64,000 bases of DNA, taken from Clostridia bacterium (lineage in GTDB: Bacteria; Bacillota; Clostridia; UBA1212; DUPL01). Where the stretch lies: NCBI GenBank assembly GCA_050951325.1, contig JBMNIW010000001.1, positions 32,001-96,000 on the forward strand, in the 5' to 3' direction. Shown one piece after another: positions 7,167 through 37,115 of the stretch (the first letter of the stretch is position 1; every line of letters starts with the position of its first letter). The notes beneath the pieces are model-generated. The model ran no database searches. It saw nothing but the letters and a program-made list of their open reading frames with translations, and was not told the DNA's origin. The position numbers and the translations under genes are program-made.

Positions 7167-8993
7167 TTACGGATTCACAAGCGGGATGTTTGCACCCTCG
7201 CTTAATCTTAGAACTCCCAGCTCTTTACAATCCTTGTAAAACTCCTTCTCAAGTCTGTCATACTCGAAAACATCCGCAAACTCTCCCCTTCTTGAAGTTA
7301 GTTTATAGAATCTGTAAGAGAGTTCCGATCTTCTTACACGTTCCAAAACCCTCTCATTCTCAGCTTCCTCTTTTGCCTTTTCCCAAAGAGAATCAAGATG
7401 TGCAAGCTCTTCGTTGTTTATCAACGACCTATACAAGGAAGCAGCATCAACCACCAGGTTGAAATGAACACTTGGGGCTGATACCTTTTCATGCAGGAAC
7501 TCAACATACTCTTTCACATACGGACTTGCCTTTCCGTAATACGTCTCAAGAAACTCGTTAATATGAATTTCCACATCCGTATATGGATCCCACAATAATT
7601 TAGCCAGAATATATGACCTAAGCTCGCCAAATTCTCCATTCAATCCCTCCTGATAGTTGCCCTGCTCAAACACTCCCTTAACATTGTTCTCAAAGAAGAA
7701 CTGCATGTTTGGCTGCAGGGTGTCAAGGTTCGGAAATGGACAGAGGTATTGGGCAAAGTTTGTAGTATAGTCCCATATGTATATCCTGTTTGAGATTTTT
7801 GCCCACCTTTCAATACAACCCTTTATTCCTGAATTGTTAGGGCAATTGCCAATGGGATGAGCCGAGCACCCTCCCGTGCACACCCGTACAATAACATTGT
7901 CCAAAGGCTTTGTCACCCTGGGCGGCTCTATGGAATATTGGTATGCCAGAGTATCCACATAAACATCAGGAAACTCATCTTTTATAGCCTCTGCAATTTT
8001 GTTTACAAACCTTATCAATGTACCAGACTTGGAACGCTCCTCCCTATCCACCTTTTTGCATTCGCTGCAGGTACAATACGATTCAATCACAAAACTGTCA
8101 TTCTGGGAAACAGATACAATCTTTGCTTCAGGATTCTCCCTGAGCCACTCCTTTACTTTGTCTATACAAATCTTGAGGACATCGGGATTGGTAAGACAAA
8201 GCTGACTGTATAGATGCTTAGCGGTCCTTTCACCGTTTATCTCAGAGAAGTACTCTGGATGCTCGTCAAAGTATACTGATGCTGGCACCAGATGCTCGAA
8301 TGTATGTACAAAGTGAGGACCTGCATAAAAGATACCGCTCCCCAAATTCTTGGGTATGGTTCTTCCATTCTCTCCGCTCTTAAGACAGCCGTTCAGTCTG
8401 AGCTTCGTACTAAATACAGGATCATATGTATTTGTCCAGAACAAATCCCTGTACTCAAAGACAGGCTTGTCGGACTTTGGTTCATGAAGCTGCAGCTCCA
8501 AGGTCTTGTTTGAAGGCACTTTTTCCACACCTTCAGCAAAGAACCTGCAACCTAAAGACTCCAAAAAGTCATATACACCGTAAATGGTTCCTCTGTCCCC
8601 ACCGCCAGCTATGACAAGCTTCTTGTTGCTCCAAAGGATGGTAAAACCCTCTTCTCCCAGAGAGTCCCGATCCACTTCATAATCCTTTTCCCTGTTGGTC
8701 TTGCCAACAACAATCTCCAATTCAGTTTCCTTTTTATTATCCTTAATAATCGGAATATTAAACCCCGTAATTTTCTTAATATACTTCTGTAATTCCTCCG
8801 CTGCATACTGCTCTGCCTTGCTTGCCTTTGCTCCAACAACTATTTTGTAATTGCTTTTTCCTTCATAAACAAGATATACGATTCCTTCAGGAGCATCAGG
8901 AATGTCATAGGTTTTTGTGCAGCCTGAAAGAGTACACATTAGCATTACAAAAGAACTTAGAGCAAATGCAAACGCTTTTCCTGAAAATCTCAT
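7167..8993 (-). CDS. DUF4838 domain lipoprotein (GH-like, with GH20/GH67 N-terminal-like domain)
   Basis: Start MRFSGK at 8993, lipobox LSGC; 'AAEELQKYIKKITG', 'RGTIYGVYDFLE.LGCRF', 'HPEYF', 'QLCLTNPDV', 'TLAYQY', 'YIWDY', 'AKLLWDP'. Confidence 0.85.
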   Translation of the reverse strand: MRFSGKAFAFALSSFVMLMCTLSGCTKTYDIPDAPEGIVYLVYEGKSNYKIVVGAKASKAEQYAAEELQKYIKKITGFNIPIIKDNKKETELEIVVGKTNREKDYEVDRDSLGEEGFTILWSNKKLVIAGGGDRGTIYGVYDFLESLGCRFFAEGVEKVPSNKTLELQLHEPKSDKPVFEYRDLFWTNTYDPVFSTKLRLNGCLKSGENGRTIPKNLGSGIFYAGPHFVHTFEHLVPASVYFDEHPEYFSEINGERTAKHLYSQLCLTNPDVLKICIDKVKEWLRENPEAKIVSVSQNDSFVIESYCTCSECKKVDREERSKSGTLIRFVNKIAEAIKDEFPDVYVDTLAYQYSIEPPRVTKPLDNVIVRVCTGGCSAHPIGNCPNNSGIKGCIERWAKISNRIYIWDYTTNFAQYLCPFPNLDTLQPNMQFFFENNVKGVFEQGNYQEGLNGEFGELRSYILAKLLWDPYTDVEIHINEFLETYYGKASPYVKEYVEFLHEKVSAPSVHFNLVVDAASLYRSLINNEELAHLDSLWEKAKEEAENERVLERVRRSELSYRFYKLTSRRGEFADVFEYDRLEKEFYKDCKELGVLRLSEGANIPLVNP

Positions 8994-23735: not shown

Positions 23736-26321
23736 TTGAAACGAAGAATATTGGTAATCTTACTTGCAGGCCTTGTATTCACAACGAACATGTCTGTAAT
23801 AGGCGAGAGAAAGATAGAAGAGCTGGGAGACGGCTATTACAGATACGTGAATGACTTTAATGCTTCAAAGCAGTTCATAATCAACGATACACTGCTTGCT
23901 TTTAACAATGAAAACAATTTCCAATTTAAAGATGGTGTCATAAGTATTGAGGGGGATACTTGGGCATTGTTCACCACATCCCAGCTGCTCGGCGAAAAGC
24001 CATATACAGTAACCATGGATGTCATGTCCAAGGAGGTCAACCCTGCGGCAACCTGCGGAGCTGCTTTTAATGTCAGAGCTAAAAAGGCATCCACTTTCAT
24101 GGATCAGGGCATTACGTTCATGGTAAGAAACAAATCCTTGAGGGTGTTCATGAAAACCCGTGAACTTGCCCATATTCAGCTGCCCTTTTCCTTTGCAGAC
24201 GAAATGAGAAAAGTATATATCGAGGATAATCTCGATGTAATTAGATTCCATGCAGATGACGATAACGGCAAGGTATTGCTTGCTGAAGTTGAGCTGACAG
24301 AAGAAAGAGTAACAGTTAAAGACAACAAAGGCAAGCAAAAAGGCAACGCAAAAAGGGAAAATGTACCCGATACAGGCTTCTTTGGTTTTATGTCCCACTT
24401 TGCCAAAACCACTGTTGACAACTTCTCCTTTGAGTATTATATAGAGCAGTATGAGCCTGCTGACATGTCAAACTTCTGGGACACGTATTATGACACATGG
24501 GTTGCTACGGATGATTTGGAAAGAACTCTTCCAGTAACATATACAAATACGGTTAAAAAGAATAAAAAGGTAGGAATCTTCTACTTTCTGTGGCATGACA
24601 GAAACGGCGGACCCTTGTTTGACCACTATGCCGCATATCTGGAAGGCGGAATTGACAAGGTTTGGGATATTATCAAACAAGGCGACGAAGGTTATGGCCA
24701 TTATTGGGCAGAACCCTATTTTGGCTACTACCGTTCCGATGACGAGTGGGTTATTAGAAAGCACACAACCATGCTTGTAAATGCAGGCATCGACTTTATA
24801 TATTTCGACATGTCAAACGGACACATATATGAGCATGTGCTTACCAAAATTCTTGGTACATGGAAGCAAATGAGAGAAGAAGGCTTGAAAACACCTGAGT
24901 TCGTCTGCTTCCTGGGAGACAGAACCGATCTAGGGTATAAAACAGCAATGGATGTATGGAATACGGTATACCAGCATGGTATTTACAGGGACATGTATTT
25001 TATGTGGGATGGAAAACCTTTGCTACTTGGAAATCTTGCAGAGGTGCCCGATGAGATTAAGGAGAACTTTACCATTAGGAGATCCTGGGCGTTTACCGAT
25101 TGGGACTGGTATACCGAATCTGACGGAAAAGGCAAATGGCCATGGATTGCACTTCATCCGCAAGGTCCGGGCAAAAGCTTTGAAGGAATTATTGAACAGG
25201 TGATAGTTTCCTGCGGATTCCATTCCAACTCCTCCTCAGGAAGAAGCTTTCACAATGGTCAGCAGCCAACGGACGGTAAAAACGCCTTTGAATTCGAGCT
25301 GGAAACCACTCCTTTAGGACTTGCCTTCAAGGAGCAGTGGGAGCACGCTCTTAAGATAAATCCTCCTATTGTAATGGTAACAGGTTGGAACGAATGGTGG
25401 GCAGGCAGGTGGCCAAACGCAGGAGAAGGACAGAAAATAGCAAATACTTATACCATAACCAAGGACCACCCTGATTACATGCACAATTATGTGGATTGTT
25501 TCAATCCTGAATTCAGCCGTGACATAGAGCCCATGAAATACGGTTTTGGAGACAACTACTACTATCAAATGGTAAGCTACATAAGGCAGTTCAAAGGAGC
25601 AAGACCACTACCCACCGCAACAAAACCAAAAACAATAACCATTAACAATGATTTTTCCCAGTGGGATGATGTGGGTCCGGAGTTCAGAGATACAATCAAT
25701 GACACTAAGCACAGGGATTTCCCCGGAAATGCCAGCGGACTTCATTACACCAATACCACCGGAAGAAACGACATAGTATCCGCAAAGGTTGCAAGGGACC
25801 AGGATTACATCTACTTCCTTGTAACAACAAAGGAAGATATTACAGCGCCAGAAGGTGAAAACTGGATGAACCTCTATATTGACGCAGATCAGAATTTCAA
25901 CACAGGCTGGAAGGGTTACGACTATGTTATCAACAGATCCAGGACGGAAAACACGGTTTCTGTGGAAAAGTCTGTGGATAACTCTTACGTTTGGGAAATA
26001 ATTCACGATGCAGAGTACATTATTTCGGGAAATAATTTGCATCTGAGGATTCCCCTCTCGGTTTTGAACCTTACAACTGACTCATCCTTTGACTTTAAAT
26101 GGGCTGACAACTCCACCACCACAGGTGAAATCATGGAGTTTATGGACAAAGGAGATGCAGCTCCTGATGACAGGTTCAACTTCAGATTCGTTGCATCAGC
26201 TCCCGTTGATAACATAAGTGAAACAGCGATAATAATTATAGCAGCGGCTTCCGTAGCAGCAGTTATAATCGTAATTGCAGTACTGCTTGCACGTAGAAAC
26301 AGAATTGAAAAAGTAAAATAA
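23736..26321 (+). CDS. Surface-anchored GH99/GH71-like glycoside hydrolase with extra N-terminal beta-sandwich; paralog of 13961-15952
   Basis: 'DDLERTLP', 'VGIFYFLWH', 'WAEPYFGYY', 'MLVNAGIDF.YFDMSN', 'TGWNEW', 'SRDIEP', 'RNDIV..KV'; C-terminal TM. Confidence 0.72.
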   Translation: MKRRILVILLAGLVFTTNMSVIGERKIEELGDGYYRYVNDFNASKQFIINDTLLAFNNENNFQFKDGVISIEGDTWALFTTSQLLGEKPYTVTMDVMSKEVNPAATCGAAFNVRAKKASTFMDQGITFMVRNKSLRVFMKTRELAHIQLPFSFADEMRKVYIEDNLDVIRFHADDDNGKVLLAEVELTEERVTVKDNKGKQKGNAKRENVPDTGFFGFMSHFAKTTVDNFSFEYYIEQYEPADMSNFWDTYYDTWVATDDLERTLPVTYTNTVKKNKKVGIFYFLWHDRNGGPLFDHYAAYLEGGIDKVWDIIKQGDEGYGHYWAEPYFGYYRSDDEWVIRKHTTMLVNAGIDFIYFDMSNGHIYEHVLTKILGTWKQMREEGLKTPEFVCFLGDRTDLGYKTAMDVWNTVYQHGIYRDMYFMWDGKPLLLGNLAEVPDEIKENFTIRRSWAFTDWDWYTESDGKGKWPWIALHPQGPGKSFEGIIEQVIVSCGFHSNSSSGRSFHNGQQPTDGKNAFEFELETTPLGLAFKEQWEHALKINPPIVMVTGWNEWWAGRWPNAGEGQKIANTYTITKDHPDYMHNYVDCFNPEFSRDIEPMKYGFGDNYYYQMVSYIRQFKGARPLPTATKPKTITINNDFSQWDDVGPEFRDTINDTKHRDFPGNASGLHYTNTTGRNDIVSAKVARDQDYIYFLVTTKEDITAPEGENWMNLYIDADQNFNTGWKGYDYVINRSRTENTVSVEKSVDNSYVWEIIHDAEYIISGNNLHLRIPLSVLNLTTDSSFDFKWADNSTTTGEIMEFMDKGDAAPDDRFNFRFVASAPVDNISETAIIIIAAASVAAVIIVIAVLLARRNRIEKVK

Positions 26322-27223: not shown

Positions 27224-29118
27224 TCAGCTTCTCTTTCTTACGATAATAAAAACAATTAAAACCAACGCCCCTGCACCTATAACTATTAAATATGCTGCAC
27301 CAAACTCATTATCCTCAATGCCTGTATCAGGGGTATTTGTCACATTCGGTGTGGGACTTGGACTATTTGTCTCTTCTGCATGAGTTTCCTCAGCACCCAT
27401 TGTTGGCTTGGGTGTGCTGGTGGCACTGCTTTCTGTAAGAACTGGAGTATCCGTAGGACGGGTTGTTTCCTCCCCTGCGGTAGGTTTAACAGGCTCCAGT
27501 TTTGGTATTATCTCCGTTAGTTCATCCTTGCATACCGAGCATACCTTCTTTTTAAGACCTTCTTCATGCTCAGTAGGGTTCTTAACTATAATCCAGTCTT
27601 CATATGTGTGGTCCTTCTTTGGTATAATCTCGGTACTTAATATAGAACCACATATACTGCAAATAGTCTCCTTCTTTCCATTACTTGTACATGTTGCCTC
27701 CGTTATTTCCACATGGGTTGATTCATGCCTGCAATCCTGCTTTACAAACACGGCATTCACAACAAGGTCCTTGTTTGGCATTTTGCCAGGCAGGTTAGGT
27801 TCCCATCCAACAAAATCATATCCTGGTTTTTCTGGAGCTGCTGGCAAAATGATACTGTCACCTTCCTTGTATACTTGTGTTGTATACACACTGCCATCAA
27901 CCTTGTATGTCACAGTATATGTAAACTGTATGGTATCAAGGTTGACACTGCCATTTGTGACATATGTATCATCATTAGGTGATATGTATTGGTAGTATGT
28001 AAGAATGTTGTTCTTTATGGTGAAGTAATAGATGTAGCCGTTTGATGTGTTTGGCGTGGCTATTTCCATGCTTTTTCCTGTAACCGTATCATACGCAAAC
28101 ACCTTTGTCGGAGTGTTGTAGAACAAATATCCATTATACTCACCAAGACCTGTAAAACAACCTTTCCAATAAGAGCCACCTCCTACAACCGGCCACATGT
28201 CCTGTATCGTGAACAGCTGAGTACTTTTATTGGTGCCAAAATCATACTTGTACAATGTGGAATTTGAGCTGTTTATGTAATACCAGCTTCCTCTTACGTA
28301 AGCAAAAGGAGCATCCACATCTCCCCAGAAGTAGTTGTCATACCTGGTCGAATTTGCTGGATAATTACTGTTCCAGGAGTAGTGATCCGTATCTTTTATA
28401 CCATCATCACTTCTAAGGAAATTATCATGTTTTACCCTTCCTGGTTTGTCCATAATTGGATCGTCCCATGTTACATCTACATGATACCACTTTCCATCAA
28501 TCTTTATTAAATTCCAAATATGGTTCATCAAGTCACTTTCAGCATAAACACTTCAATGCCAAGCTTTTTCAATACTGCCATGTATGCAAGCGTGTATGAC
28601 TGGCATACACCTTTTCCCTCCTTGAAATAGCTGTATGCATCATTTATTTCCAAATCCATATCATATTCATAATTGGCAGCAAGATAGTCATGCACATACA
28701 AAGCCTTTTCAATATCACTCAATCCAGATGGCACACTCTTTACAATGTCATCAACGAACTGATTGTATTCCTTCCTTGCATTAGCCAAAGCATTTCCCGT
28801 CATCTTGTATGAAGGAATCACTTTGATTATTGTGTTGTTAACCATCTGTATTTGATACTGGTATTCAACATAAAAAAGTTCAGGACTCTCATAAAGAATC
28901 GAAAAGTATGTATCTCTAACATCAGACGCCATCGATGTAGACAAATTCAAAGGCTTTAAATCTATTTCTCCAGACACTGATGAAAGCCCGGAGTATATAA
29001 CGTTGTACAAATCATTGCTCTGGCTGTGAACTGGGACATATGCAAGGCTTGATACACAAATGAGAACCAGTGTCAATACGACCAAAACCGTCCTTCTAAA
29101 GTTTATTCGTTTAGTCAT
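27224..29118 (-). CDS. Surface-anchored transglutaminase-like (Cys-His-Asp) protein, split by one frameshift near 28540
   Basis: Upstream ORF has a signal peptide and 'GVCQSY' (catalytic Cys); downstream ORF begins 'NHIWN...WYHVDVTWDD' (His, Asp), then an InlB-B-like repeat, CxxC repeats, a T/P linker and a TM. The triad is split across the two ORFs, so this is one gene. Confidence 0.8.
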
Positions 29119-29618
29119 ACCAACACCCCATTATACTCAATTCGTGAAAACAAAATATTTATAAACTCACCAAGACCTTTTGCATCTTCCATATCAAATC
29201 TGTTTAACACAGGACTATCTATGTCCAATACTCCTATCAAGTTATCTCCCTTGACAATAGGCAGAACAATTTCTGATCTGGATGCAGGATCACATACAAT
29301 ATGACCCGGAAACTCTTCAGTATTCTTAACTACCTGCACTTTCAGACTTGCAGCTGCACTGCCGCACACCCCTTTACCTATCGGAATTCTTACACATGCA
29401 GGTTTTCCCTGAAAGGGTCCAAGCACCAGTTCCTCATCCCTGTATAAATAGAAACCTGCCCAATTAATATCGGGCATAAGGTTATACAGTAAAGCAGATG
29501 CATTGCAAAGCCCAGACAGCCAGTCTCGGTCGTCTCCCAACAATGCATCAAGATATTTATTTAATCTATTATAAAACTCTTTCTTGTTATCTGTCTCAAT
29601 CAACTCATATGTAAACAT
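29115..29618 (-). CDS. msrC: GAF-domain free methionine-R-sulfoxide reductase
   Basis: 'NWAGFYL', 'LGPFQGKPACVRI..GKGVCG', 'FPGHIVCD..SRSEIV.P', 'LDIDSP...RF'. Confidence 0.9.
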   Translation of the reverse strand: MFTYELIETDNKKEFYNRLNKYLDALLGDDRDWLSGLCNASALLYNLMPDINWAGFYLYRDEELVLGPFQGKPACVRIPIGKGVCGSAAASLKVQVVKNTEEFPGHIVCDPASRSEIVLPIVKGDNLIGVLDIDSPVLNRFDMEDAKGLGEFINILFSRIEYNGVLV

Positions 29619-29649
29619 AATCAATGCTCCAATACTGTTTATATGGTTA

Positions 29650-29678
29650 ATTATAAAGAAGTATGGAGATATGGTCAA
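29650..29678 (-). promoter_or_regulatory. Sigma-A promoter of the msrC operon
   Basis: TTGACC-N17-TATAAT on the minus strand. Confidence 0.75.
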
Positions 29679-29803
29679 ATGAAATAGTTTACTATCAAGA
29701 GTCTGAGTCACCGAACTACTTCCGCCACACTATATGGTTTTTTTGCTACGTTTTTATTGTCGTATGCTACAGCTGCGTTCTCCTTAACGATAATTCCCTA
29801 TTC

Positions 29804-30202
29804 TCACATCATATTCATATGATGATGCGTATCCACATGTTGCTGCATATCCATATGTTGCTGCATATCCATACGATGATGCGTATCCATATTAAGTTGC
29901 ATCTGTTCATCCATCTGTCTCTGTAATTCAATCTGATTCTGAATTTGCATGTTTATTTCCTGTTGCTGCATCTGATCCATAAACAATTGCTGCTGCATCT
30001 GAAACTGTCTAAGTTGTTCCTCGTTTTGCATTCGGTTAACCATTTGTTGATGCTGGTCTATGTTGTTGTTATAAAGCGTCTGCTGGTTATTATATGGTTT
30101 GTTTTTATTAACTATATAGACTATTGTAACTATCATACATACTAGAATTATTGCAACCACTACACATACAAGGAAACCGATAACAAGTATCATACTAAAC
30201 AT
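29804..30202 (-). CDS. Single-TM protein with Q/N/M/H-rich low-complexity tail
   Basis: RBS AAGGAG, ATG 30202; long hydrophobic N-terminus, then QQQ/MDMQQH/DTHH repeats. Confidence 0.7.
   Translation of the reverse strand: MFSMILVIGFLVCVVVAIILVCMIVTIVYIVNKNKPYNNQQTLYNNNIDQHQQMVNRMQNEEQLRQFQMQQQLFMDQMQQQEINMQIQNQIELQRQMDEQMQLNMDTHHRMDMQQHMDMQQHVDTHHHMNMM
29821..29890. repeat. Short coding tandem repeats (18-bp period)
   Basis: ATGTTGCTGCATATCCAT twice, flanked by two copies of GATGATGCGTATCCA. Confidence 0.75.
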
Positions 30203-30230
30203 ATTACAACTCTCCTTTATTATTTTCTGT

Positions 30231-30264
30231 ATTATATTACATTTCCGGGACAAAAAATTGCACT
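30231..30264 (-). promoter_or_regulatory. Conserved element copy 1: AGTGCAATTTTTTGTC-CC-N10-TATAAT
   Basis: 16-mer at 30249-30264 is identical to copies 2 and 3; -10 box at 30231-30236. Confidence 0.8.
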
Positions 30265-30361
30265 AATGATATTAATATAAAGTATATATTCATTTTCTGG
30301 TGTTGCCTGTTATTATGACCGTACGGCATATTAGAGACATTCACAGTTCCATTTGGGTCTT

Positions 30362-30397
30362 AAAAGCTGTCGCATATTTTTCTATACGACAGCTTTT
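30362..30397 (-). terminator. Intrinsic terminator after lipoprotein gene
   Basis: AAAAGCTGTCG...CGACAGCTTTT. Confidence 0.7.
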
Positions 30398-30410
30398 TGT
30401 TCTAACTACC

Positions 30411-31016
30411 TTAATGGTTATATCGCAGAAAAGATTGTGTTATTAGATAAGATAGATCCGCATTCATCATAAGTACTGACTCTTCTGTAAAATAGAAAGT
30501 CCATACAACGTAATTGTTTGAAGATATAACGCAACCCTCTAAAGCGCCAAAAACACCATCACATATTAGTCCATCCTCATTCGACATTTTTATTTCAACA
30601 TCGTGCAAATTATATACTGTCGTACTTAGTCCGTTGTGAATAAACGCTTCCATATGTATGGCATTACCATCATAATAGACATATTTTGGACTTATAACAA
30701 CCATATTATCGCCTGTATTTGGGACGTTGCTTATGAAGACGTTATTCGGATTAGCAGTTTCGTTTGCAGGCTCTTCAGTCTTTTGAGGCTTATCTGTCTC
30801 TTGTACCCCATCAGTTTTTGCAGGCTTCTCTGTCTCTTGTATCCCATCAGTTTTTGTCGGATCTTCAGTTGATTCGTCAATCCCAGGATTTTTGTTTTCC
30901 GAATCCGTAACACTAGGTGTCTGCTCATGATATTCTAGAATATCATTTTCTGTGCGAGCACATCCTACAGTTAAAACTGTTATTAATACTGTTATAAGAA
31001 TAAAAACTTTTTTCAT
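30411..31016 (-). CDS. Lipoprotein with SLAP-like C-terminal domain homologous to the kinase ectodomain
   Basis: RBS GGAGG, MKKVFIL..., lipobox TVGC; T/E/K/P linker with a 12-aa repeat; domain 'VVISPKYVYYDGNAIHMEAFIHNG'. Confidence 0.75.
   Translation of the reverse strand: MKKVFILITVLITVLTVGCARTENDILEYHEQTPSVTDSENKNPGIDESTEDPTKTDGIQETEKPAKTDGVQETDKPQKTEEPANETANPNNVFISNVPNTGDNMVVISPKYVYYDGNAIHMEAFIHNGLSTTVYNLHDVEIKMSNEDGLICDGVFGALEGCVISSNNYVVWTFYFTEESVLMMNADLSYLITQSFLRYNH
30786..30856. repeat. 36-bp tandem duplication in the lipoprotein linker
   Basis: Encodes KTDGIQETEKPA / KTDGVQETDKPQ. Confidence 0.75.
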
Positions 31017-31054
31017 AAGATTACCTCCCGAAGTTAATGGTCTTTGTTGTGTAT

Positions 31055-31088
31055 ATAATAACAAAGTAGTAAGACAAAAAATTGCACT
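31055..31088 (-). promoter_or_regulatory. Conserved element copy 2: AGTGCAATTTTTTGTC-TT-N10-TATTAT
   Basis: 16-mer at 31073-31088; -10 box at 31055-31060. Confidence 0.8.
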
Positions 31089-31160
31089 GTTTATATACTA
31101 TTCTAAGCGTGGCATATCTGTAGCATAGAAGCTAAGTCTCATAATGTACACTAGATGTTA

Positions 31161-31751
31161 TTACTTGAACTTAACACTAATCCTTTCATTGTTATAATGC
31201 AAATCAAAAATATAGAGTGTTGAAATATGAAAAGTTAGACTATCAGCTTCTTTGTAACCATTAAAATAATACTCAAACTCACGTCTTTCACCGGATGCAA
31301 TGTCACCATCCAAAAAGTCATTCATATGTATGATTAAGTCTAATGGATACTTTTTCCCGGTACCATCCAAAACATATGCATCCATAGGGCTAAACTGTAT
31401 GTTTTGAGTTTTATGTTTGTTCTCCATTATACCTTTTACAACCAAAAAACTTCCATCTATCTTGTATCCGGTTATTGTAATCACTAGATTACCACCTACT
31501 GCTGTACCTTCAGCATTGGTATCGTTAAAACCATCTCCCGCCGGTGTTTCTTGCGGATGTTTTCCTGGAGTATTTGTTTTTTCCGCTGGATTGTTTGTAG
31601 TCTGTTCAACAGGTTCATTCGTAGCTTTTCCACCAGGTTCCGACGTTTCTGATATTAGCTCACCAACTGTAGTATCGTTGTCGTCCCAATCCTTGCAACC
31701 TACCATGAATACGATTGCTAGAAATATAATTACAAGCAGTGTTTTCTTCAT
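31161..31751 (-). CDS. Lipoprotein with Ig-like (DUF4352-like) domain
   Basis: RBS GGAGG, MKKTLL..., lipobox MVGC; linker; 'LVVKG.MEN', 'LDGTGKKY', 'GDIASGE.RE...YF'. Confidence 0.72.
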   Translation of the reverse strand: MKKTLLVIIFLAIVFMVGCKDWDDNDTTVGELISETSEPGGKATNEPVEQTTNNPAEKTNTPGKHPQETPAGDGFNDTNAEGTAVGGNLVITITGYKIDGSFLVVKGIMENKHKTQNIQFSPMDAYVLDGTGKKYPLDLIIHMNDFLDGDIASGERREFEYYFNGYKEADSLTFHISTLYIFDLHYNNERISVKFK

Positions 31752-31794
31752 ACATAGCCCTCCCCCATATATTAGCGTATTGTAGTACATATCT

Positions 31795-31828
31795 ATGATA
31801 TCAAGTATGAAGGACAAAAAATTGCACT
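31795..31828 (-). promoter_or_regulatory. Conserved element copy 3: AGTGCAATTTTTTGTC-CT-N10-TATCAT
   Basis: 16-mer at 31813-31828, 4 bp after the kinase stop; -10 box at 31795-31800. Confidence 0.8.
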
Positions 31829-31832
31829 ATTT

Positions 31833-33581
31833 TCAATTTACTATCCGTTTGCATGTAGCCTTCCATTTAATATGCGTCAAGTCCACATCTGTCTTTTTTA
31901 CATACTTGCCTTCAAACACCAATGTATAAATTACTATTTCCTTAGAAGCAATCTTGCTATTCACTACAGTTGAAAATGCCTTCGATGCAATAACATTCTC
32001 GTTCTTGTCAAGAATTGTTATTTTAATATTTTTTACTCCATCTATGTCGATATCATAGCCATTGTAAAAAAACGCAACCATATAAAGCTTTTCGTCTTTA
32101 AAATATATATTCTTAGGTGAAATAATCACTTTGTTATCGGCCTTTAAACTTTCTTCAAAATCAGCCATATAAAACTGCGTATCAGTGTATACTCTGTCCT
32201 TTCTCTTACCGACATTTAATACAAATAATAATGCACTAATAACAACTAAACATAACACTATGCCAACTGTTCTTCTTGTTTTCTTTGACTTATCACGTTC
32301 AGTGCTTTCTACTAAGTTCAACAAATATTTTTTGTGTATTAAATGCAACTCCTGTTTAAGCTCTGTGACACTCATATATCTGGCTTCCGGGTTCGGATGC
32401 ATGGCTTTTTCGATAACATTAATAATATATTCAGGTGTGTTTTTGCAATACTTTCGATTCAAGTTAGCAGGAGGATTAATACCTTCCACTAAAAAATAGA
32501 GCAATGCACCAAGGCTATAGACATCACTCCTCTGATCGCAAACACCTTTGTTTAGCAATTCCGGTGCCGAATACCCAAAGGTTCCTACAGAGGGCATTTC
32601 ACGAATATAGTCTTTTTTATGACTAAGCAATGCAGTACCGAAATCAACCAAATAGAGGCGGTTATCATTGCCCAAAATAACATTGCTTGGTTTGAGATCG
32701 TTAAAGATGACCGGATTTTTCTCGTTATGCAGATATTCAATAATGTTACACAACTCAATACATTTCTTTATTGCATTAGATGCAGCCAATGGCCCTGATT
32801 CTTTTAACAAGTCATTCAGATTTCTACCATCGATATAATCCATAACAAGGTAAACGGTTTGATTGTCGTAGAATACATCATATATTCTCGGAATACCTTC
32901 GTGATTAATAGATAACAAAACCTGCTTTTCGTTCTCAGTATAAATCTTATCTTTCAGTTCATAGTTAATTTCTTTTACAGCAACATATATATCAAGATTG
33001 ATATGATATGCCTTAAACACTCTCCCGCCGCCACCGCTTCCAATCAGTTCATCAAGACGACAATAACCTCCAACAATATCGTTGACTTCTGCCTGTAATT
33101 TCTCAGGCGACGGCTGTATGTCATCCTTGTCCAATATTTTAAGTTCATAAAGAACTTTTCCAATAACCAAAAAAATCTCAACACACAACTCATAGTTTAC
33201 ACTCTCAGTCATTATCGTTGATGTATTATGAGCACTCAAATTACGTATGATTCTTATCCTATTTAGCCTATTTAGGGTTGTTCTATCAAAGCTGTATCCT
33301 TTTTTACTTAATTCCTCAAAGTTTTTCATAAAATCAGACTCAATATAACGGTCATCTAATATGTCTGATAAAACATAATGTAACAAGCTTAGCAACTCAA
33401 TTACTAAAGTAAAATAATCACTAACCTGTTTCCCGGAATTTAGTCTTTTACAGAGTTCAACCCACTTCTTTTTTACTTCCTGCTTGTTACTGTATTTGTA
33501 GGTCGCTTTATTCTTCATTTCCCTAGATTTTATATAATCGTCCAGTTTCATTATTTTGCTCATCTGACTGCCCCTATTCAT
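31833..33581 (-). CDS. Membrane Hanks-type Ser/Thr kinase with N-terminal HEPN/DUF4145-like domain and C-terminal SLAP-like ectodomain
   Basis: GSGGGGRV, VAVK, FNDLKPSN, DFG, GTFGYSAPE, DVYSLG; N-terminal 'LNRIRIIRNLSAH'; TM 'VGIVLCLVVISALLFVL'. True start may be MSKIM at 33563. Confidence 0.88.
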   Translation of the reverse strand: MNRGSQMSKIMKLDDYIKSREMKNKATYKYSNKQEVKKKWVELCKRLNSGKQVSDYFTLVIELLSLLHYVLSDILDDRYIESDFMKNFEELSKKGYSFDRTTLNRLNRIRIIRNLSAHNTSTIMTESVNYELCVEIFLVIGKVLYELKILDKDDIQPSPEKLQAEVNDIVGGYCRLDELIGSGGGGRVFKAYHINLDIYVAVKEINYELKDKIYTENEKQVLLSINHEGIPRIYDVFYDNQTVYLVMDYIDGRNLNDLLKESGPLAASNAIKKCIELCNIIEYLHNEKNPVIFNDLKPSNVILGNDNRLYLVDFGTALLSHKKDYIREMPSVGTFGYSAPELLNKGVCDQRSDVYSLGALLYFLVEGINPPANLNRKYCKNTPEYIINVIEKAMHPNPEARYMSVTELKQELHLIHKKYLLNLVESTERDKSKKTRRTVGIVLCLVVISALLFVLNVGKRKDRVYTDTQFYMADFEESLKADNKVIISPKNIYFKDEKLYMVAFFYNGYDIDIDGVKNIKITILDKNENVIASKAFSTVVNSKIASKEIVIYTLVFEGKYVKKTDVDLTHIKWKATCKRIVN

Positions 33582-34502
33582 TTATTCTATATAGTATGAC
33601 AAGCATTGTTCTGCAGACCGTATCATATCGTTTCTTAATTCTTCGGGCTCAAGCACAATTGCAGATGAACCATAACTCCTAAGCCACCTTTTGAAGCTGT
33701 TTATGCCTGCAATTGTATCCTCATATATTATGTAACCCTCATATTCTGTTATCTTCTTGTTTTTCCTGTGGGACAAATCCCTTTTAACCTTATAAATTAC
33801 ATTTGCCTCGTCCAAAAACTTTACTTTTACGTTGAATAGATTACCTTGTTCCATACCCCAGCTATACTCAAGAAGACTCTCGACATGCTCCACTCCAATA
33901 GGCTCGAACCTTTCATTAGTTGCTTTAATCTCTATCATTCTGTCAAGCCTGTACGTTGCAATTCTTCCATTGTGCTGTCCTATGATGTAAACCATGTTAT
34001 CTATTTCATAATATACAATCCTCAACGGTTCTATTAAAAAATCGCTTGTTTTATATCTTGTCTTGTACTTTACCTTTAGCTTCTTCCTATTCTCTATAGC
34101 TAGTGTGATAATCAGGAACTTGTCCTTTTGTTCAGCTAAACCATGTGTAGACTTTATCCTAATACCAAGGATCTCATCATCAAAAAACGCATTTGCAACA
34201 AGACTTTCAAATAGGAACTTCTCCACTGAGTTAATGCACAAATAAACAATATCATCACTGTCCTCTTCATCCTCGCATGCAATATTCCATGTCATATCAC
34301 CCAAATCCATTATTGCGTCTTCATGTTCCTCACTGTAAATATCAAGAAGTCTGAACTCAGGGTTGTATGATATGAGCTCAAGATTGCGCAAGACAACACC
34401 CTCAGGTACCTTCAAGATATTTGCCAGCTGTTTTGTCGTAATTCCCCTGTTATTTGCAATAATAGCTATAAGTTGCAGCATCAGGCTCATGTCTTTCTTC
34501 AT
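33582..34502 (-). CDS. HTH-WYL-WCX transcriptional regulator (PafC-like)
   Basis: N-terminal HTH 'ITTKQLANILKVPEGVVLRNLELI'; WYL core 'AIENRKKLKVKY...IEPLRI.Y....YIIG....IATYRLDRM'; WCX 'WLRSYGSSAIVLEPEELR'. Confidence 0.88.
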   Translation of the reverse strand: MKKDMSLMLQLIAIIANNRGITTKQLANILKVPEGVVLRNLELISYNPEFRLLDIYSEEHEDAIMDLGDMTWNIACEDEEDSDDIVYLCINSVEKFLFESLVANAFFDDEILGIRIKSTHGLAEQKDKFLIITLAIENRKKLKVKYKTRYKTSDFLIEPLRIVYYEIDNMVYIIGQHNGRIATYRLDRMIEIKATNERFEPIGVEHVESLLEYSWGMEQGNLFNVKVKFLDEANVIYKVKRDLSHRKNKKITEYEGYIIYEDTIAGINSFKRWLRSYGSSAIVLEPEELRNDMIRSAEQCLSYYIE

Positions 34503-35675
34503 ATTTGATACCTACCCCGTAACTTTTTAAAATTCTTTCATATGTATTTCGCATTAAGTCTTTCAATTCATTTGGGGAGATGACCCTGCAGGAAGAGCCA
34601 AAGCTCCGCAAAAAACGAGCAAAGTCATGCATCCCATAAATTGTATCTTTATAAATTATTGTCTCCCCGAAAACTGACAAACTACAGCTTTTTCTTAATC
34701 TTTTCAGCCTTGTTAATCTTTCCATAATGTTAAACTTGTTATCAAATTCAACAACAACATCAAACGGGCCGTCGAGCGATGCTCCAAACATTAACTCTAA
34801 TTTTTGCATCACATTGTCGTCCTTGTAGCACTCATTTCTTATGTTTGTAGATTTTATTTCAATAATAGAACTAATATCAATAAAGAAGATTTCGTCTTTA
34901 ACCTTACCGATAACATAACTTTTATCGTTATCGTAATGGTAGAACAGAGTAATAACCTGAACGATTACGGATAGTTTTCCTACCTTTGAGTTATATGTTA
35001 TTTCTAAAGACTTTCTTCTATAATCACAGGTTTCAAACTCATCAATATTTCTCAAAAGATGTTTGCTTATACGATATCTTCTACCGATAGAATATATGTC
35101 GTATTCATCCTCATAAGGCATTGTTTGAGTTATTATTTTACTTTTCAGGGAGTGAAGAATGTCGTTGAGCGGAAGATGATGCTTGTACAAGTTTGAGAGT
35201 TCTAAAAAGGCATAAAGATTAACATCATCTGTTTTATACAGAAAATCAGACGTAGCAGACAGACAGCATTTGTTGTTCTCATCAATGTATATCAAATTGT
35301 TTTCAACACATAGTTCTATCGCCCTAATAATGGTCTTTTCACTGAAACATCAGCGTCGCACAGACTTTCTTTAAGCATTTCAACAAGTTCTCTGTGTTCA
35401 AGTCTGCCGTTACACTCACCAACGGTCAACAAAATTTTAATAACTCTCAAATCAGTGTTGCTAAGAAGCATTCCTTTTTCGTAATCGTCTTCAACCAACA
35501 CGTAATTATTGTTTTTTCTCCTTATGTTGTATCCCAGTTTTCTAAGATCCTTTATATAATAGCTTACACTGCGATTGCTAATATCCAACAACATCTTAAT
35601 TTCATCGAAAGTAATCGTATTGTGTGTCAAAAAATGGTGTATCAACTTGTTTATTTTTTGCTCCTTTACGCTCAT
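34450..35675 (-). CDS. HTH-HTH-WYL-WCX transcriptional regulator (PafB-like), split by one frameshift near 35345
   Basis: ORF 35316-35675 has HTH 'TFDEIKMLLDISNRSVSYYIKDL'; the alternative frame continues 'SEKTIIRAIELCVENNLIYID' into ORF 34450-35295, which ends in WCX 'FLRSFGSSCRVISPNELK'. Confidence 0.78.
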
Positions 35676-35729
35676 TAAATTCCTCCGAATACCTCCACAT
35701 CAATATTAGGTTATTTTTAAGTTATTGGT

Positions 35730-35757
35730 ATTATACACCATAATCCTAGTCAGTCAA
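35730..35757 (-). promoter_or_regulatory. Sigma-A promoter of the WYL-WYL-kinase operon
   Basis: TTGACT-N16-TATAAT on the minus strand. Confidence 0.65.
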
Positions 35758-35818
35758 GCTTCTGAGCTATACAAAATGTAACACAAATATAGCATGTGAA
35801 TAAAAATTGGAGCATAAT

Positions 35819-35850
35819 AAAAGGAATGGAACCAATTAGCTCCATTCCTT
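35819..35850 (-). terminator. Terminator after flagellin
   Basis: AAGGAATGGA...TCCATTCCTT followed by T residues on the minus strand. Confidence 0.7.
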
Positions 35851-35870
35851 GATTACTATACACTAGTTAC

Positions 35871-37075
35871 TTATTGAAGCAGCTGCAGTACTGACTGTGG
35901 TGCCTGGTTGGCCTGAGCCAGCATTGCTGTAGCAGCTTGTGCCAGGATGTTGTTCTTGGTGTACTCCATCATTTCGTTAGCCATGTCAACGTCACGAATA
36001 CGGCTTTCAGCCGCAGTAAGATTTTCAGCTGATGTATTCAGGTTGTTGATGGTATGCTCAAGACGGTTCTGGTATAGCACCAAGTTTAGCTCTTTCCTCA
36101 GAAACCTTGTTTATTGCCTTGTCTATGGTGTCAATCGCTGCAGTCTGCGATCAGTGTCTGCTGCTTACAGAAACATAAGCAACATCCAGAGCCTCCGCTG
36201 ACATGTCACCAATGAGAAAGATCTATGCTCTGATCCTTATTGGCACCAATCTGGAATGTCATGCGTACCCATCAGCTGCACGTAACATTATCTGCTTCAC
36301 TCTGTTGTCCTTCACCATTGCCTCGCTTGTAGTAGATAATGATGTATCATCTTTTACCACCGTAACGGTATCTCTTTTGTCGCCAATCGTCAACGTCTTC
36401 TAGATATATCTTCTTCTGTCCAAATCGTCTTTAGTAAAGGATCACCTGAGCCTACATTCTTTCCTACCTATAATTCACATCAAATCGTTAATCTCGATGA
36501 TAGCTCCAACATGTTCACTCAGACTGGTATCCTCGTCATATGTTAATGTACTGAGTAATTTCAAATGTATCACCTAAAGCAAGTGTCACTAACAGTAATT
36601 GAATCTAGCATATTCGGCATTTGTACTCTGTATCGACCTTGATACTTATACACCACGATCACCATTCAACAGTGTCTTCTCGTTAAACTCGGTTTGCTCA
36701 GCAATTCTTGTAAGTTCCTCCTGAAGCTGATCTACTTCATTCTGTAAAGCTGTACGGTCTACTCACTTCATTTGTATCAGTAGCTGCCTGTACTGCTAGC
36801 TCTCTCATTCTTTGAAGAATTGAGTGAGTTTCGTTTAGTGCGCCTTCTGCAGTCTGAATGAGTGAAATTGCGTCCTGTGAGTTCTTGGAAGCCATCTTGA
36901 GACCACGGATTTGAGCTCTCATCTTTTCGGATATGGCGAGACCAGCTGCGTCGTCTCCAGCTCTGTTGATTCTGTAGCCGGAAGAAAGCTTCTCAATTGA
37001 TTTCTGGATGTTGTTGTTGTTAACTCCCAAATACCTTTGGGCATTCATTGCCATTAAGTTGTTGTTAATTCTCAT
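35871..37075 (-). CDS. fliC: Flagellin, interrupted by several single-base indels (assembly error or recent pseudogene)
   Basis: N-terminus MRINNN...[27 protein letters not shown]; shifted frames give [55 protein letters not shown]...[11 protein letters not shown]...QSVLQLLQ. Confidence 0.92.
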
Positions 37076-37080
37076 TATAA

Positions 37081-37115
37081 TTCCTCCTTGAAATTTAATA
37101 TTCGGCATCCTTGCC
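37081..37115 (-). promoter_or_regulatory. CsrA-binding sites in the flagellin leader
   Basis: Hairpin GGCA-AGGA-TGCC (37104-37115) and a second AGGA within the Shine-Dalgarno AAGGAGGA, as in Bacillus hag. Confidence 0.7.

Follow-up and report, generated by a model that had tools for sequence, protein, structure and literature searches.

A bipartite element beside a tandem WYL regulator pair in Clostridia marks promoters without a -35 box and may serve as an activator site

The stretch of DNA analysed here (the window) comprises 64,000 nucleotides of a Clostridia bacterium (GenBank assembly GCA_050951325.1, contig JBMNIW010000001.1, positions 32,001 to 96,000). It contains three exact copies of a 16-bp element, which reads GACAAAAAATTGCACT on the plus strand. 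All nearby genes lie on the minus strand, on which each copy reads AGTGCAATTTTTTGTC. Along that strand, a broken flagellin gene is followed by an ordinary promoter, the genes of two WYL regulators (WYL-A and WYL-B) and a transmembrane Ser/Thr kinase gene. Then come three promoters that carry the element: P3 before the lipoprotein gene LP3, P2 before the lipoprotein gene LP2 and, beyond a hairpin that is likely a terminator, P1 before the gene of the membrane protein QM1 (Table 1). The sequence comparisons set out below lead us to favour, with some reservation, a reading in which the 16-mer is the site through which the WYL pair activates promoters of the housekeeping sigma factor that have no -35 box.

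The first-pass annotation had described three identical 16-mers upstream of genes, with unrelated flanks, a constant distance to the -10 box and no -35 box, and our searches bear out each of these observations. The start codons, at 30202 (P1), 31016 (P2) and 31751 (P3), follow the -10 boxes by 28, 38 and 43 nt. A repeat search places the three sites, spaced by 824 and 740 nt, in one shared register over 39 nt. Identity is confined to the 16-mer; the -10 boxes are alike, and the upstream flanks and the 12-nt spacers are unrelated. A scan with the sigma-70 consensus called none of P1-P3, because none of them has a -35 hexamer with at least four of six matches.

The element is also rare. No fourth copy occurs in the window at up to three mismatches. 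A shuffle control at the same threshold (mean 1.48; 15 of 100 shuffles reached three) counts matches with up to three mismatches and is therefore uninformative on three exact copies, of which about 0.004 would be expected genome-wide by arithmetic from the G+C content of 39.8%. The genome-wide scan that had been suggested as a check returned only the same three copies at up to two mismatches in 3,082,766 bases (reversed-pattern control, 1). The relaxed pattern GTGCA-N6-TGTC-N12-TANNNT likewise gave three matches in the genome, namely P1, P2 and P3.

Table 1. Features of the WYL locus in the window, in minus-strand order.
Feature	Position	Strand	Remarks
Ordinary promoter of the WYL operon, TTGACT-16-TATAAT	35730..35757	-	11 of 12 matches; best minus-strand match of the sigma-70 scan
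WYL-A, two open reading frames (ORFs)	34450..35675	-	split by a frameshift into 35316-35675 (119 residues) and 34450-35295 (281 residues)
WYL-B, 306 residues, helix-turn-helix (HTH), WYL and WCX domains	33582..34502	-	Pfam WYL E 8.5e-9, WCX E 4.7e-10
Transmembrane Ser/Thr kinase, 582 residues	31833..33581	-	Pfam Pkinase E 1e-42; SLAP_DUP E 3e-9
P3 upstream element AGTGCAATTTTTTGTC	31813..31828	-	exact copy; begins 4 nt past the kinase stop codon
P3 -10 box TATCAT	31795..31800	-	12-nt spacer cttcatacttga; TGa before the box, an extended -10
LP3, lipoprotein behind P3	31161..31751	-	lipobox FMVGC
P2 upstream element AGTGCAATTTTTTGTC	31073..31088	-	exact copy
P2 -10 box TATTAT	31055..31060	-	12-nt spacer ttactactttgt; TGt before the box, an extended -10
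LP2, lipoprotein behind P2 with SLAP domain	30411..31016	-	lipobox LTVGC; TIGR04398 SLAP_DUP E 1.3e-9
Hairpin AAAAGCTGTCG...CGACAGCTTTT between LP2 and P1	30362..30397	-	15-nt arms, 93% complementary
P1 upstream element AGTGCAATTTTTTGTC	30249..30264	-	exact copy; about -40 to -25
P1 -10 box TATAAT	30231..30236	-	perfect; 12 nt beyond the element; spacer ccggaaatgtaa
QM1, 132 residues, behind P1	29804..30202	-	one N-terminal membrane helix; tail rich in glutamine, methionine and histidine (Q/M/H)

WYL-A overlaps WYL-B, and the start codon of the kinase gene abuts the stop codon of WYL-B, so that the three genes form a tight operon. The two regulators are tandem paralogues, with 30% identity between WYL-B and WYL-A over residues 107-304. 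The kinase consists of an N-terminal DUF4145-like region, the kinase domain (residues 177-390), a membrane helix and a SLAP-type ectodomain (482-572), and its residues 481-571 are homologous to LP2 (E 3e-10). In Clostridium paridis, residues 479-631 of the kinase (L007:11347-13242) match LP3 of the window (37% identity, E 8e-25). The type of ectodomain thus varies by genome, SLAP-type in the window and LP3-type in C. paridis. Since the kinase ectodomain and the lipoproteins behind the element are homologous, the module looks like a cell-surface signalling unit. QM1 matches no Pfam family above the cut-off and is weakly similar (E 3e-4) to a transmembrane, Q-rich protein encoded in the related module of a Clostridiaceae genome (G143, see below). 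In the 3' part of its gene, an 18-nt unit is repeated four times in tandem (29810-29902) and encodes repeated hexapeptides of M, D, Q and H.

Matches to the module are nearly missing among relatives. The search covered the GTDB family, which holds this genome only, 44 other genomes of the order and 397 others in a sample of the class. One of the 44 gave a weak WYL-B match (E 8.8e-6), and none of the 397 matched at E 1e-40. There is therefore no footprint in close relatives, and the module looks like an accessory island. Among 5.8 billion proteins, WYL-B is represented by 18 cluster representatives and WYL-A by 10. A metagenome scan returned one locus only, a 3.4 kb contig (L010) that is 99.6% identical to the window and ends before the promoters.

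For comparison we used loci of C. paridis (L007), C. ganghwense (L008) and a metagenome-assembled genome (MAG) of the Lachnospiraceae (L009), together with a sample of 401 Clostridiaceae genomes, 386 of which were scored in the WYL-B protein search (G186 and G261, which may yet carry a module, are among the unscored). A close WYL-B (E < 1e-60) is present in six genomes: C. paridis (G045), C. ganghwense (G046), G081, G139, G143 and G181. Five of the six encode the full module of WYL-A, WYL-B and kinase, while C. ganghwense has the pair without the kinase. The orthologous regulators are 41-49% identical, the C. ganghwense pair being more distant (32-35%). In all seven genomes (7/7), the WYL paralogue genes are in tandem and overlap. 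The Lachnospiraceae MAG has a related WYL pair without a convincing site; a look-alike upstream of a transglutaminase-like gene differs in its spacing and reads TGAA where TGTC is expected.

The first-pass annotation had also proposed a motif search downstream of homologous WYL pairs. In the six other genomes the element is kept beside such pairs with unchanged spacing. In C. paridis, G081 and G139, AGTGCAAATTTTTGTC is followed after 12 nt by TATAAT (L007:13335-13340 in C. paridis) just past the kinase gene, and the targets behind it are a small Q/M-rich protein and then a SLAP-type lipoprotein. The gene order is rearranged in G143 and G181, where GTGCAAAAAAATGTCC, 11 nt and TATAAT precede a lipoprotein gene in a string of lipoprotein, transmembrane and Q-rich gene, WYL-A, WYL-B and kinase. 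G181 has a second site, AGTGCATTTTTTTGTC with 12 nt and TATACT, before a gene for an SSB-fold protein that converges on the kinase gene. Two further observations concern this genome. Between the lipoprotein gene and the Q-rich gene lies an insertion with IS607-like genes (L053:520-2320). A 31-nt repeat with a variant of the motif in it (L053:7922 and 13031) flanks a 5.1-kb stretch with genes for an ArsR-like protein, a flavin oxidoreductase and a Na+/H+ antiporter, the copy at 7922 preceding the SSB-fold gene.

C. ganghwense was missed by the strict pattern. A variant regular expression gave four matches in its 21 kb locus, two of which have neither the A/T run nor the G-rich upstream part. 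The first of the two variant sites (L008:7066, +) can be written as AGTGAAAAAAAATGTCC-N11-TATTAT or equally as cAGTGAAAAAAAATGTCC with 11 nt and TATTAT. Behind it follow a 137-residue transmembrane protein rich in Q, M and N, a 427-residue lipoprotein with a Q/M-rich tail, WYL-A and WYL-B. The second (L008:11253, +) reads GGGGAAAAAATTTGTCC, 11 nt and TATCAT, with TGTCC, and lies just after WYL-B with no ORF behind it; it may mark a small RNA or a remnant. Despite the reordered genes, the targets fall into the same classes, SLAP-type lipoproteins and Q/M-rich proteins, in the window and in G045, G081, G139, G143, G181 and L008.

Within the genomes that carry it, the element is exclusive to the module. 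The composite pattern GTGCA-W6-TGTC-N12-TANNNT (W, A or T) has 1, 1, 1, 2 and 1 matches in the five module-bearing Clostridiaceae genomes (22 Mb), and all six matches adjoin the module (reversed-pattern control, 0). Across the 401 Clostridiaceae genomes there are 24 matches in 23 genomes against 6 in the control, and six of the 24 are the module sites. The remaining 18 are single matches in 18 of 396 genomes, counted without regard to neighbouring WYL genes; none of the 15 background matches listed combines GTGCAA, a homopolymeric W5, TGTCC and TATAAT. The stricter GTGCAA-W5-TGTC-N12-TATAAT has no match in viral_contigs.

Together, the three sites of the window and the six of the Clostridiaceae make nine strict sites, or eleven with the two C. 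ganghwense variants. TGTC, 12 nt and a -10 box (TAT.AT or TATACT in the strict sites) recur in 9/9 strict and 11/11 of all sites. The upstream half-site AGTGCAA that had been proposed earlier holds up in its core: GTGCA[A/T] stands at -39 to -34 in 9/9 strict sites and is degenerate in C. ganghwense (GTGAA, GGGAA). Neither the sequence of the 12-nt spacer nor anything upstream of -40 is conserved in the strict sites. In every site, runs of A/T fill the -35 position. Only 2/9 strict sites have a canonical TGn extended -10, so that 7/9 have neither a -35 box nor TGn; both C. ganghwense sites carry TGn. The lack of a -35 box, the scarcity of TGn and the ordinary promoter in front of the WYL operon itself argue for dependence of the motif promoters on an activator.

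The WYL proteins offer a possible counterpart to the two conserved half-sites. In an AlphaFold model of C. paridis WYL-A, with a mean predicted local distance difference test score (pLDDT) of 70.5 and a low predicted template modelling score (pTM), two winged HTH (wHTH) domains (20-77 and 90-156) are followed by linker helices, a beta-rich WYL-like domain and WCX. WYL-A thus has one HTH more than PafB, PafC or DriD. Among orthologues, R52 and K55 are invariant in its first wHTH (predicted helix 51-63), as are S129, K131, T132, R135 and A136 in the second (predicted helix 130-142); the alignment of WYL-B orthologues has no invariant basic residue in the HTH. The WYL domain of WYL-B keeps YRLDRI, with its second arginine invariant, at a position where WYL-A has YFIDVKTI, as judged by eye. 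Foldseek ranks DriD (6e-12) and PafBC (2e-11) above CapW (4e-7) and BrxR (8e-7) for the WYL-A model. From these features we suggest that WYL-A would read both half-sites, with WYL-B as a putative ligand sensor and a possible partner of RNA polymerase.

In our proposal, the promoters are bipartite, [A]GTGCA[A]-W5-TGTC[C]-N11-TATAAT, and the 16-mer would supply their upstream portion. A -10 box for the housekeeping sigma factor is present, a -35 box is not, and its place is taken by two conserved half-sites, GTGCAA (about -39 to -34) and TGTC (about -28 to -25), one helical turn apart; these positions refer to starts predicted from the -10 boxes. WYL-A and WYL-B, probably as a heterodimer, would most likely bind this site and activate transcription by RNA polymerase. 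That the element is the cis-site of this adjacent pair we hold to be almost certain. The downstream half-site agrees with the -26 element of PafBC promoters in sequence (GTC) and position, and the extra upstream half-site may be matched to the extra wHTH domain of WYL-A. The regulon would be local and, in this genome, would consist of LP2, LP3 and QM1, the membrane protein with the Q/M-rich tail. The likely signal input is the kinase, whose ectodomains share homology with these lipoproteins.

How the pair might act can be gauged against solved WYL activators. PafBC promoters have the motif tGTCgg(N10)tA(N3)T; their -26 element occupies -23 to -28, and a -35 consensus is lacking (PMC8635444), which agrees with the geometry given in the first-pass annotation. 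The PafB HTH reads GTC via R46 and R50, two basic residues four apart in the recognition helix, and the PafC HTH contacts sigma region 4 (PMC8635444). A PafBC regulator binds no DNA unless RNA polymerase is present. The locus described here resembles this system in its tandem WYL paralogues, in its -10 boxes without -35 boxes and in a GTC that precedes TAnnnT by 12 nt and falls between -28 and -23. It also has a recognition helix with two conserved basic residues four apart (K131 and R135 of WYL-A). By eye, the arginine pair in YRLDRI of WYL-B seems to be spaced like R211/R214 in the PafB WYL domain, a pair needed for binding of single-stranded DNA (PMC11804915).

The differences from PafBC are equally clear. 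The hosts here belong to the Clostridia instead of the Actinobacteria, the module lacks a neighbouring Pup-proteasome locus, and the WYL operon encodes a transmembrane Ser/Thr kinase. One to three local promoters of surface proteins contrast with about 150 DNA-damage genes, and in WYL-A the wHTH domain is doubled and the WYL domain degenerate. Sigma adaptation in the strict sense we regard as plausible but unproven and hold only tentatively. In its fullest form, sigma adaptation would operate outside the Actinobacteria through a heterodimer with three wHTH domains, WYL-A sitting on the half-sites and the WYL-B HTH on sigma region 4, switched by the kinase; this version we consider possible and somewhat doubtful. 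The PafBC-type reading given in the first-pass annotation therefore survives in part: the promoter geometry, the tandem WYL pair upstream, the uniqueness of the element and its conserved spacing speak for it, while the conserved GTGCAA, the lack of orthology and the split WYL-A do not.

Several observations weigh against activation by the WYL pair, or against its PafBC-like form. Similarity to solved WYL activators is marginal in sequence searches and of a generic WYL/WCX kind. Profile searches against PDB chains gave E 0.006 (6sj9) and 0.019 (7p5x) for WYL-B and E 2.9 (PafC) for WYL-A, and an alignment of the HTH domains with PafB was obtained neither from single-sequence nor from profile searches of PDB sequences. 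WYL-A and WYL-B are therefore not orthologues of PafB or PafC. The heterodimer, probable as we take it to be, is deduced only from the tandem, overlapping genes. Many of the sites are orthologous and five of the seven genomes belong to one family, so that the eleven sites represent fewer than eleven independent events, perhaps about six independent promoters. In C. ganghwense, the operon with the WYL pair apparently has a motif promoter as its sole promoter, and in G143 and G181 a motif promoter likewise stands at the head of the series of genes leading into WYL-A. Such self-control is common for repressors. Finally, the conserved GTGCAA at -39 to -34 has no equivalent in PafBC promoters, which lack an upstream consensus (PMC13004042, PMC8635444), and makes the site straddle the -35 position in the manner of DriD.

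The state of WYL-A in this genome adds to these difficulties. Three-frame translation places the frameshift near 35330-35340, where the first ORF ends in ...DADVSVKRPLLGR before its stop codon and another frame continues with ...KTIIRAIELCVENNLIYIDENNK... The shorter ORF holds the first wHTH and the start of the second, and the longer one the rest of the second wHTH, the degenerate WYL domain and WCX; WYL-A orthologues are single intact proteins of 388-409 residues. The break falls on the invariant K131/T132 in the second recognition helix. An identical split is present in the metagenome contig L010 and in a gap-free contig of the DNA run X3, so the frameshift is probably no error of this one assembly, and the regulator in this particular genome seems to be damaged. 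If the second wHTH reads TGTC, the frameshift should weaken an activator in this genome. LP2 is nevertheless covered by a contig from an RNA library, a finding that would fit a lost repressor better; P2, for its part, has an extended -10 box.

That contig (614 nt, RNA library X17, depth 11.1) covers 30417-31030, the stretch of LP2, and stops 18 nt before the predicted P2 start is reached. A contig of RNA library X16 covers 35512-35709 and stops 14 nt before the start predicted for the WYL operon promoter. All runs compared are contigs, which show neither transcription starts nor expression levels, and we take the two as weak hints. Most of the kinase and WYL genes are without cover in X16 and X17, and X15 gives thin cover on all genes (depth 2.6-4.4); both patterns can be read neither as silence nor as expression. 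At least 0.98 of the sampled words of window positions 29000-36000 are contained in 14 DNA runs from 10 studies, each flagged as a possible source and labelled metagenome, bioreactor, sludge or anaerobic digester; X3 is the one among them whose contigs were compared.

Activation could also proceed without sigma adaptation, as in DriD of Caulobacter crescentus: wHTH domains would occupy both half-sites, with sigma region 4 on the opposite face of the DNA, and RNA polymerase would be reached by other contacts. In DriD these run to the C-terminal domain of the alpha subunit (alpha-CTD) and to beta, through a three-helix bundle. DriD is a WYL activator whose promoters have no -35 box and keep the site at a fixed distance from the -10 box (PMC13004042). 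Its sites extend to either side of -35, a placement classed as type IV, whereas PafBC, with its single -26 element, is of type II (PMC13004042, PMC8635444). Two conserved half-sites that straddle -35 match the former class, the half-sites of DriD contain GTC, and DriD is the best Foldseek match. Against this, DriD binds as a homodimer with one wHTH per subunit to the pseudo-palindrome ATACGAC(X)7GTCGTAT, whereas the locus encodes two distinct paralogues and GTGCAA and TGTCC are not reverse complements. The GTC stands exactly at the PafBC distance from the -10 box, and a WYL-B HTH devoid of conserved basic residues is what would be expected of a domain that does not read DNA. The site, at about -40 to -25, combines a DriD-like span with a PafBC-like downstream half, so that geometry alone cannot choose between the mechanisms. 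Activation of the DriD kind is in our view a genuine possibility, albeit one we would not bet on.

Alternatively, the element may be an operator at which the WYL pair, or WYL-B alone, represses -10-only promoters until a signal arrives. WYL repressors of neighbouring genes are well known, and among them BrxR and CapW, which repress defence systems, share the HTH-WYL-WCX architecture and control adjacent genes (PMC13004042). P2, P3 and both C. ganghwense sites have the TGn extended -10, with which a promoter is able to work without a -35 box. The motif promoter ahead of the WYL genes in C. ganghwense would then amount to negative self-control, and the cover of LP2 despite the broken WYL-A would fit. 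BrxR and CapW are, however, homodimeric repressors on symmetric operators (PMC13004042), unlike the two distinct paralogues and the asymmetric site found here, which is phased with the -10 box in promoters that have no -35. The distance to that box is identical in 11/11 sites while the spacer drifts, a phasing that operators do not need. Moreover, the 7/9 strict sites with neither -35 nor TGn would leave little promoter to repress, a GTC at the PafBC position would be coincidence, and Foldseek places the activators first. On balance we think repression unlikely.

It is very improbable that the 16-mer serves in recombination or cassette shuffling, or that an unlinked factor or an alternative sigma factor targets it: the three direct repeats at the edges of small genes, and a GTGCAA that presumably recalls, if faintly, the -35 boxes of forespore sigma factors, are offset by the fixed position relative to the -10 box and start codon, by single copies in four of the other genomes, by the absence of joints between the 16-mer repeats in the contigs of four runs, by a module with no recombinase or sigma gene and no Rfam match within 29500-36000, and by confinement to one locus per genome, which a general sigma regulon would not keep. 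The recombination site that the first-pass annotation had named as an alternative thus finds no support.

The surroundings of the module are flagellar. The neighbours of the WYL pair are flagellar genes, the kinase and the lipoproteins, and PADLOC reported only generic kinase (PD-T4-6, mad6) and WYL models, with none of the known defence systems complete. The island, which stretches from the WYL pair to an 861-residue ORF (23736-26321), lies inside a late flagellar cluster (window 21636-43882), flanked by flagellin, csrA, fliW, flgL, flgK and flgN on one side and by fliD and fliS on the other. The flagellin gene (35871-37108, minus strand) is fragmented into an N-terminal ORF (36737-37108) and a C-terminal ORF (35871-36083). 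The window has five extra single bases here, at 36076, 36141, 36149, 36158 and 36214, relative to contigs of X3 (DNA) and of the RNA libraries X16 and X17, and the C-terminal ORF is longer in L010. The fragmentation is either an assembly error in a strain-variable region or real decay. At 27224-29118 (minus strand), two ORFs with a 4-nt overlap match consecutive parts (profile positions 131-228 and 242-305) of the NCBIfam model of the MAG6410 transglutaminase-related lipoprotein, and may be one split gene.

To our knowledge, the WYL regulators described so far are responsive to DNA damage or govern phage defence, and mycobacterial PafBC is the only case in which sigma adaptation has been demonstrated. 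The authors of the PafBC work asked whether the mechanism is more general (PMC8635444). A full-text literature search found no description of a clostridial WYL pair or motif of the kind reported here. Through the module, a WYL regulator would be connected with a membrane Ser/Thr kinase and with proteins of the cell surface and, if kinase-switched sigma adaptation holds, an extracellular signal would be linked to a private set of promoters without a -35 box. Its one to three promoters in each genome, its sharply delimited bipartite site and the extra DNA-binding domain that matches the extra half-site would make it a compact clostridial test case, for which C. paridis is a cultured host with intact module genes. 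Taken together, the recurrence of the same layout in other clostridial genomes suggests that promoter control of the mycobacterial style may also exist in Clostridia.

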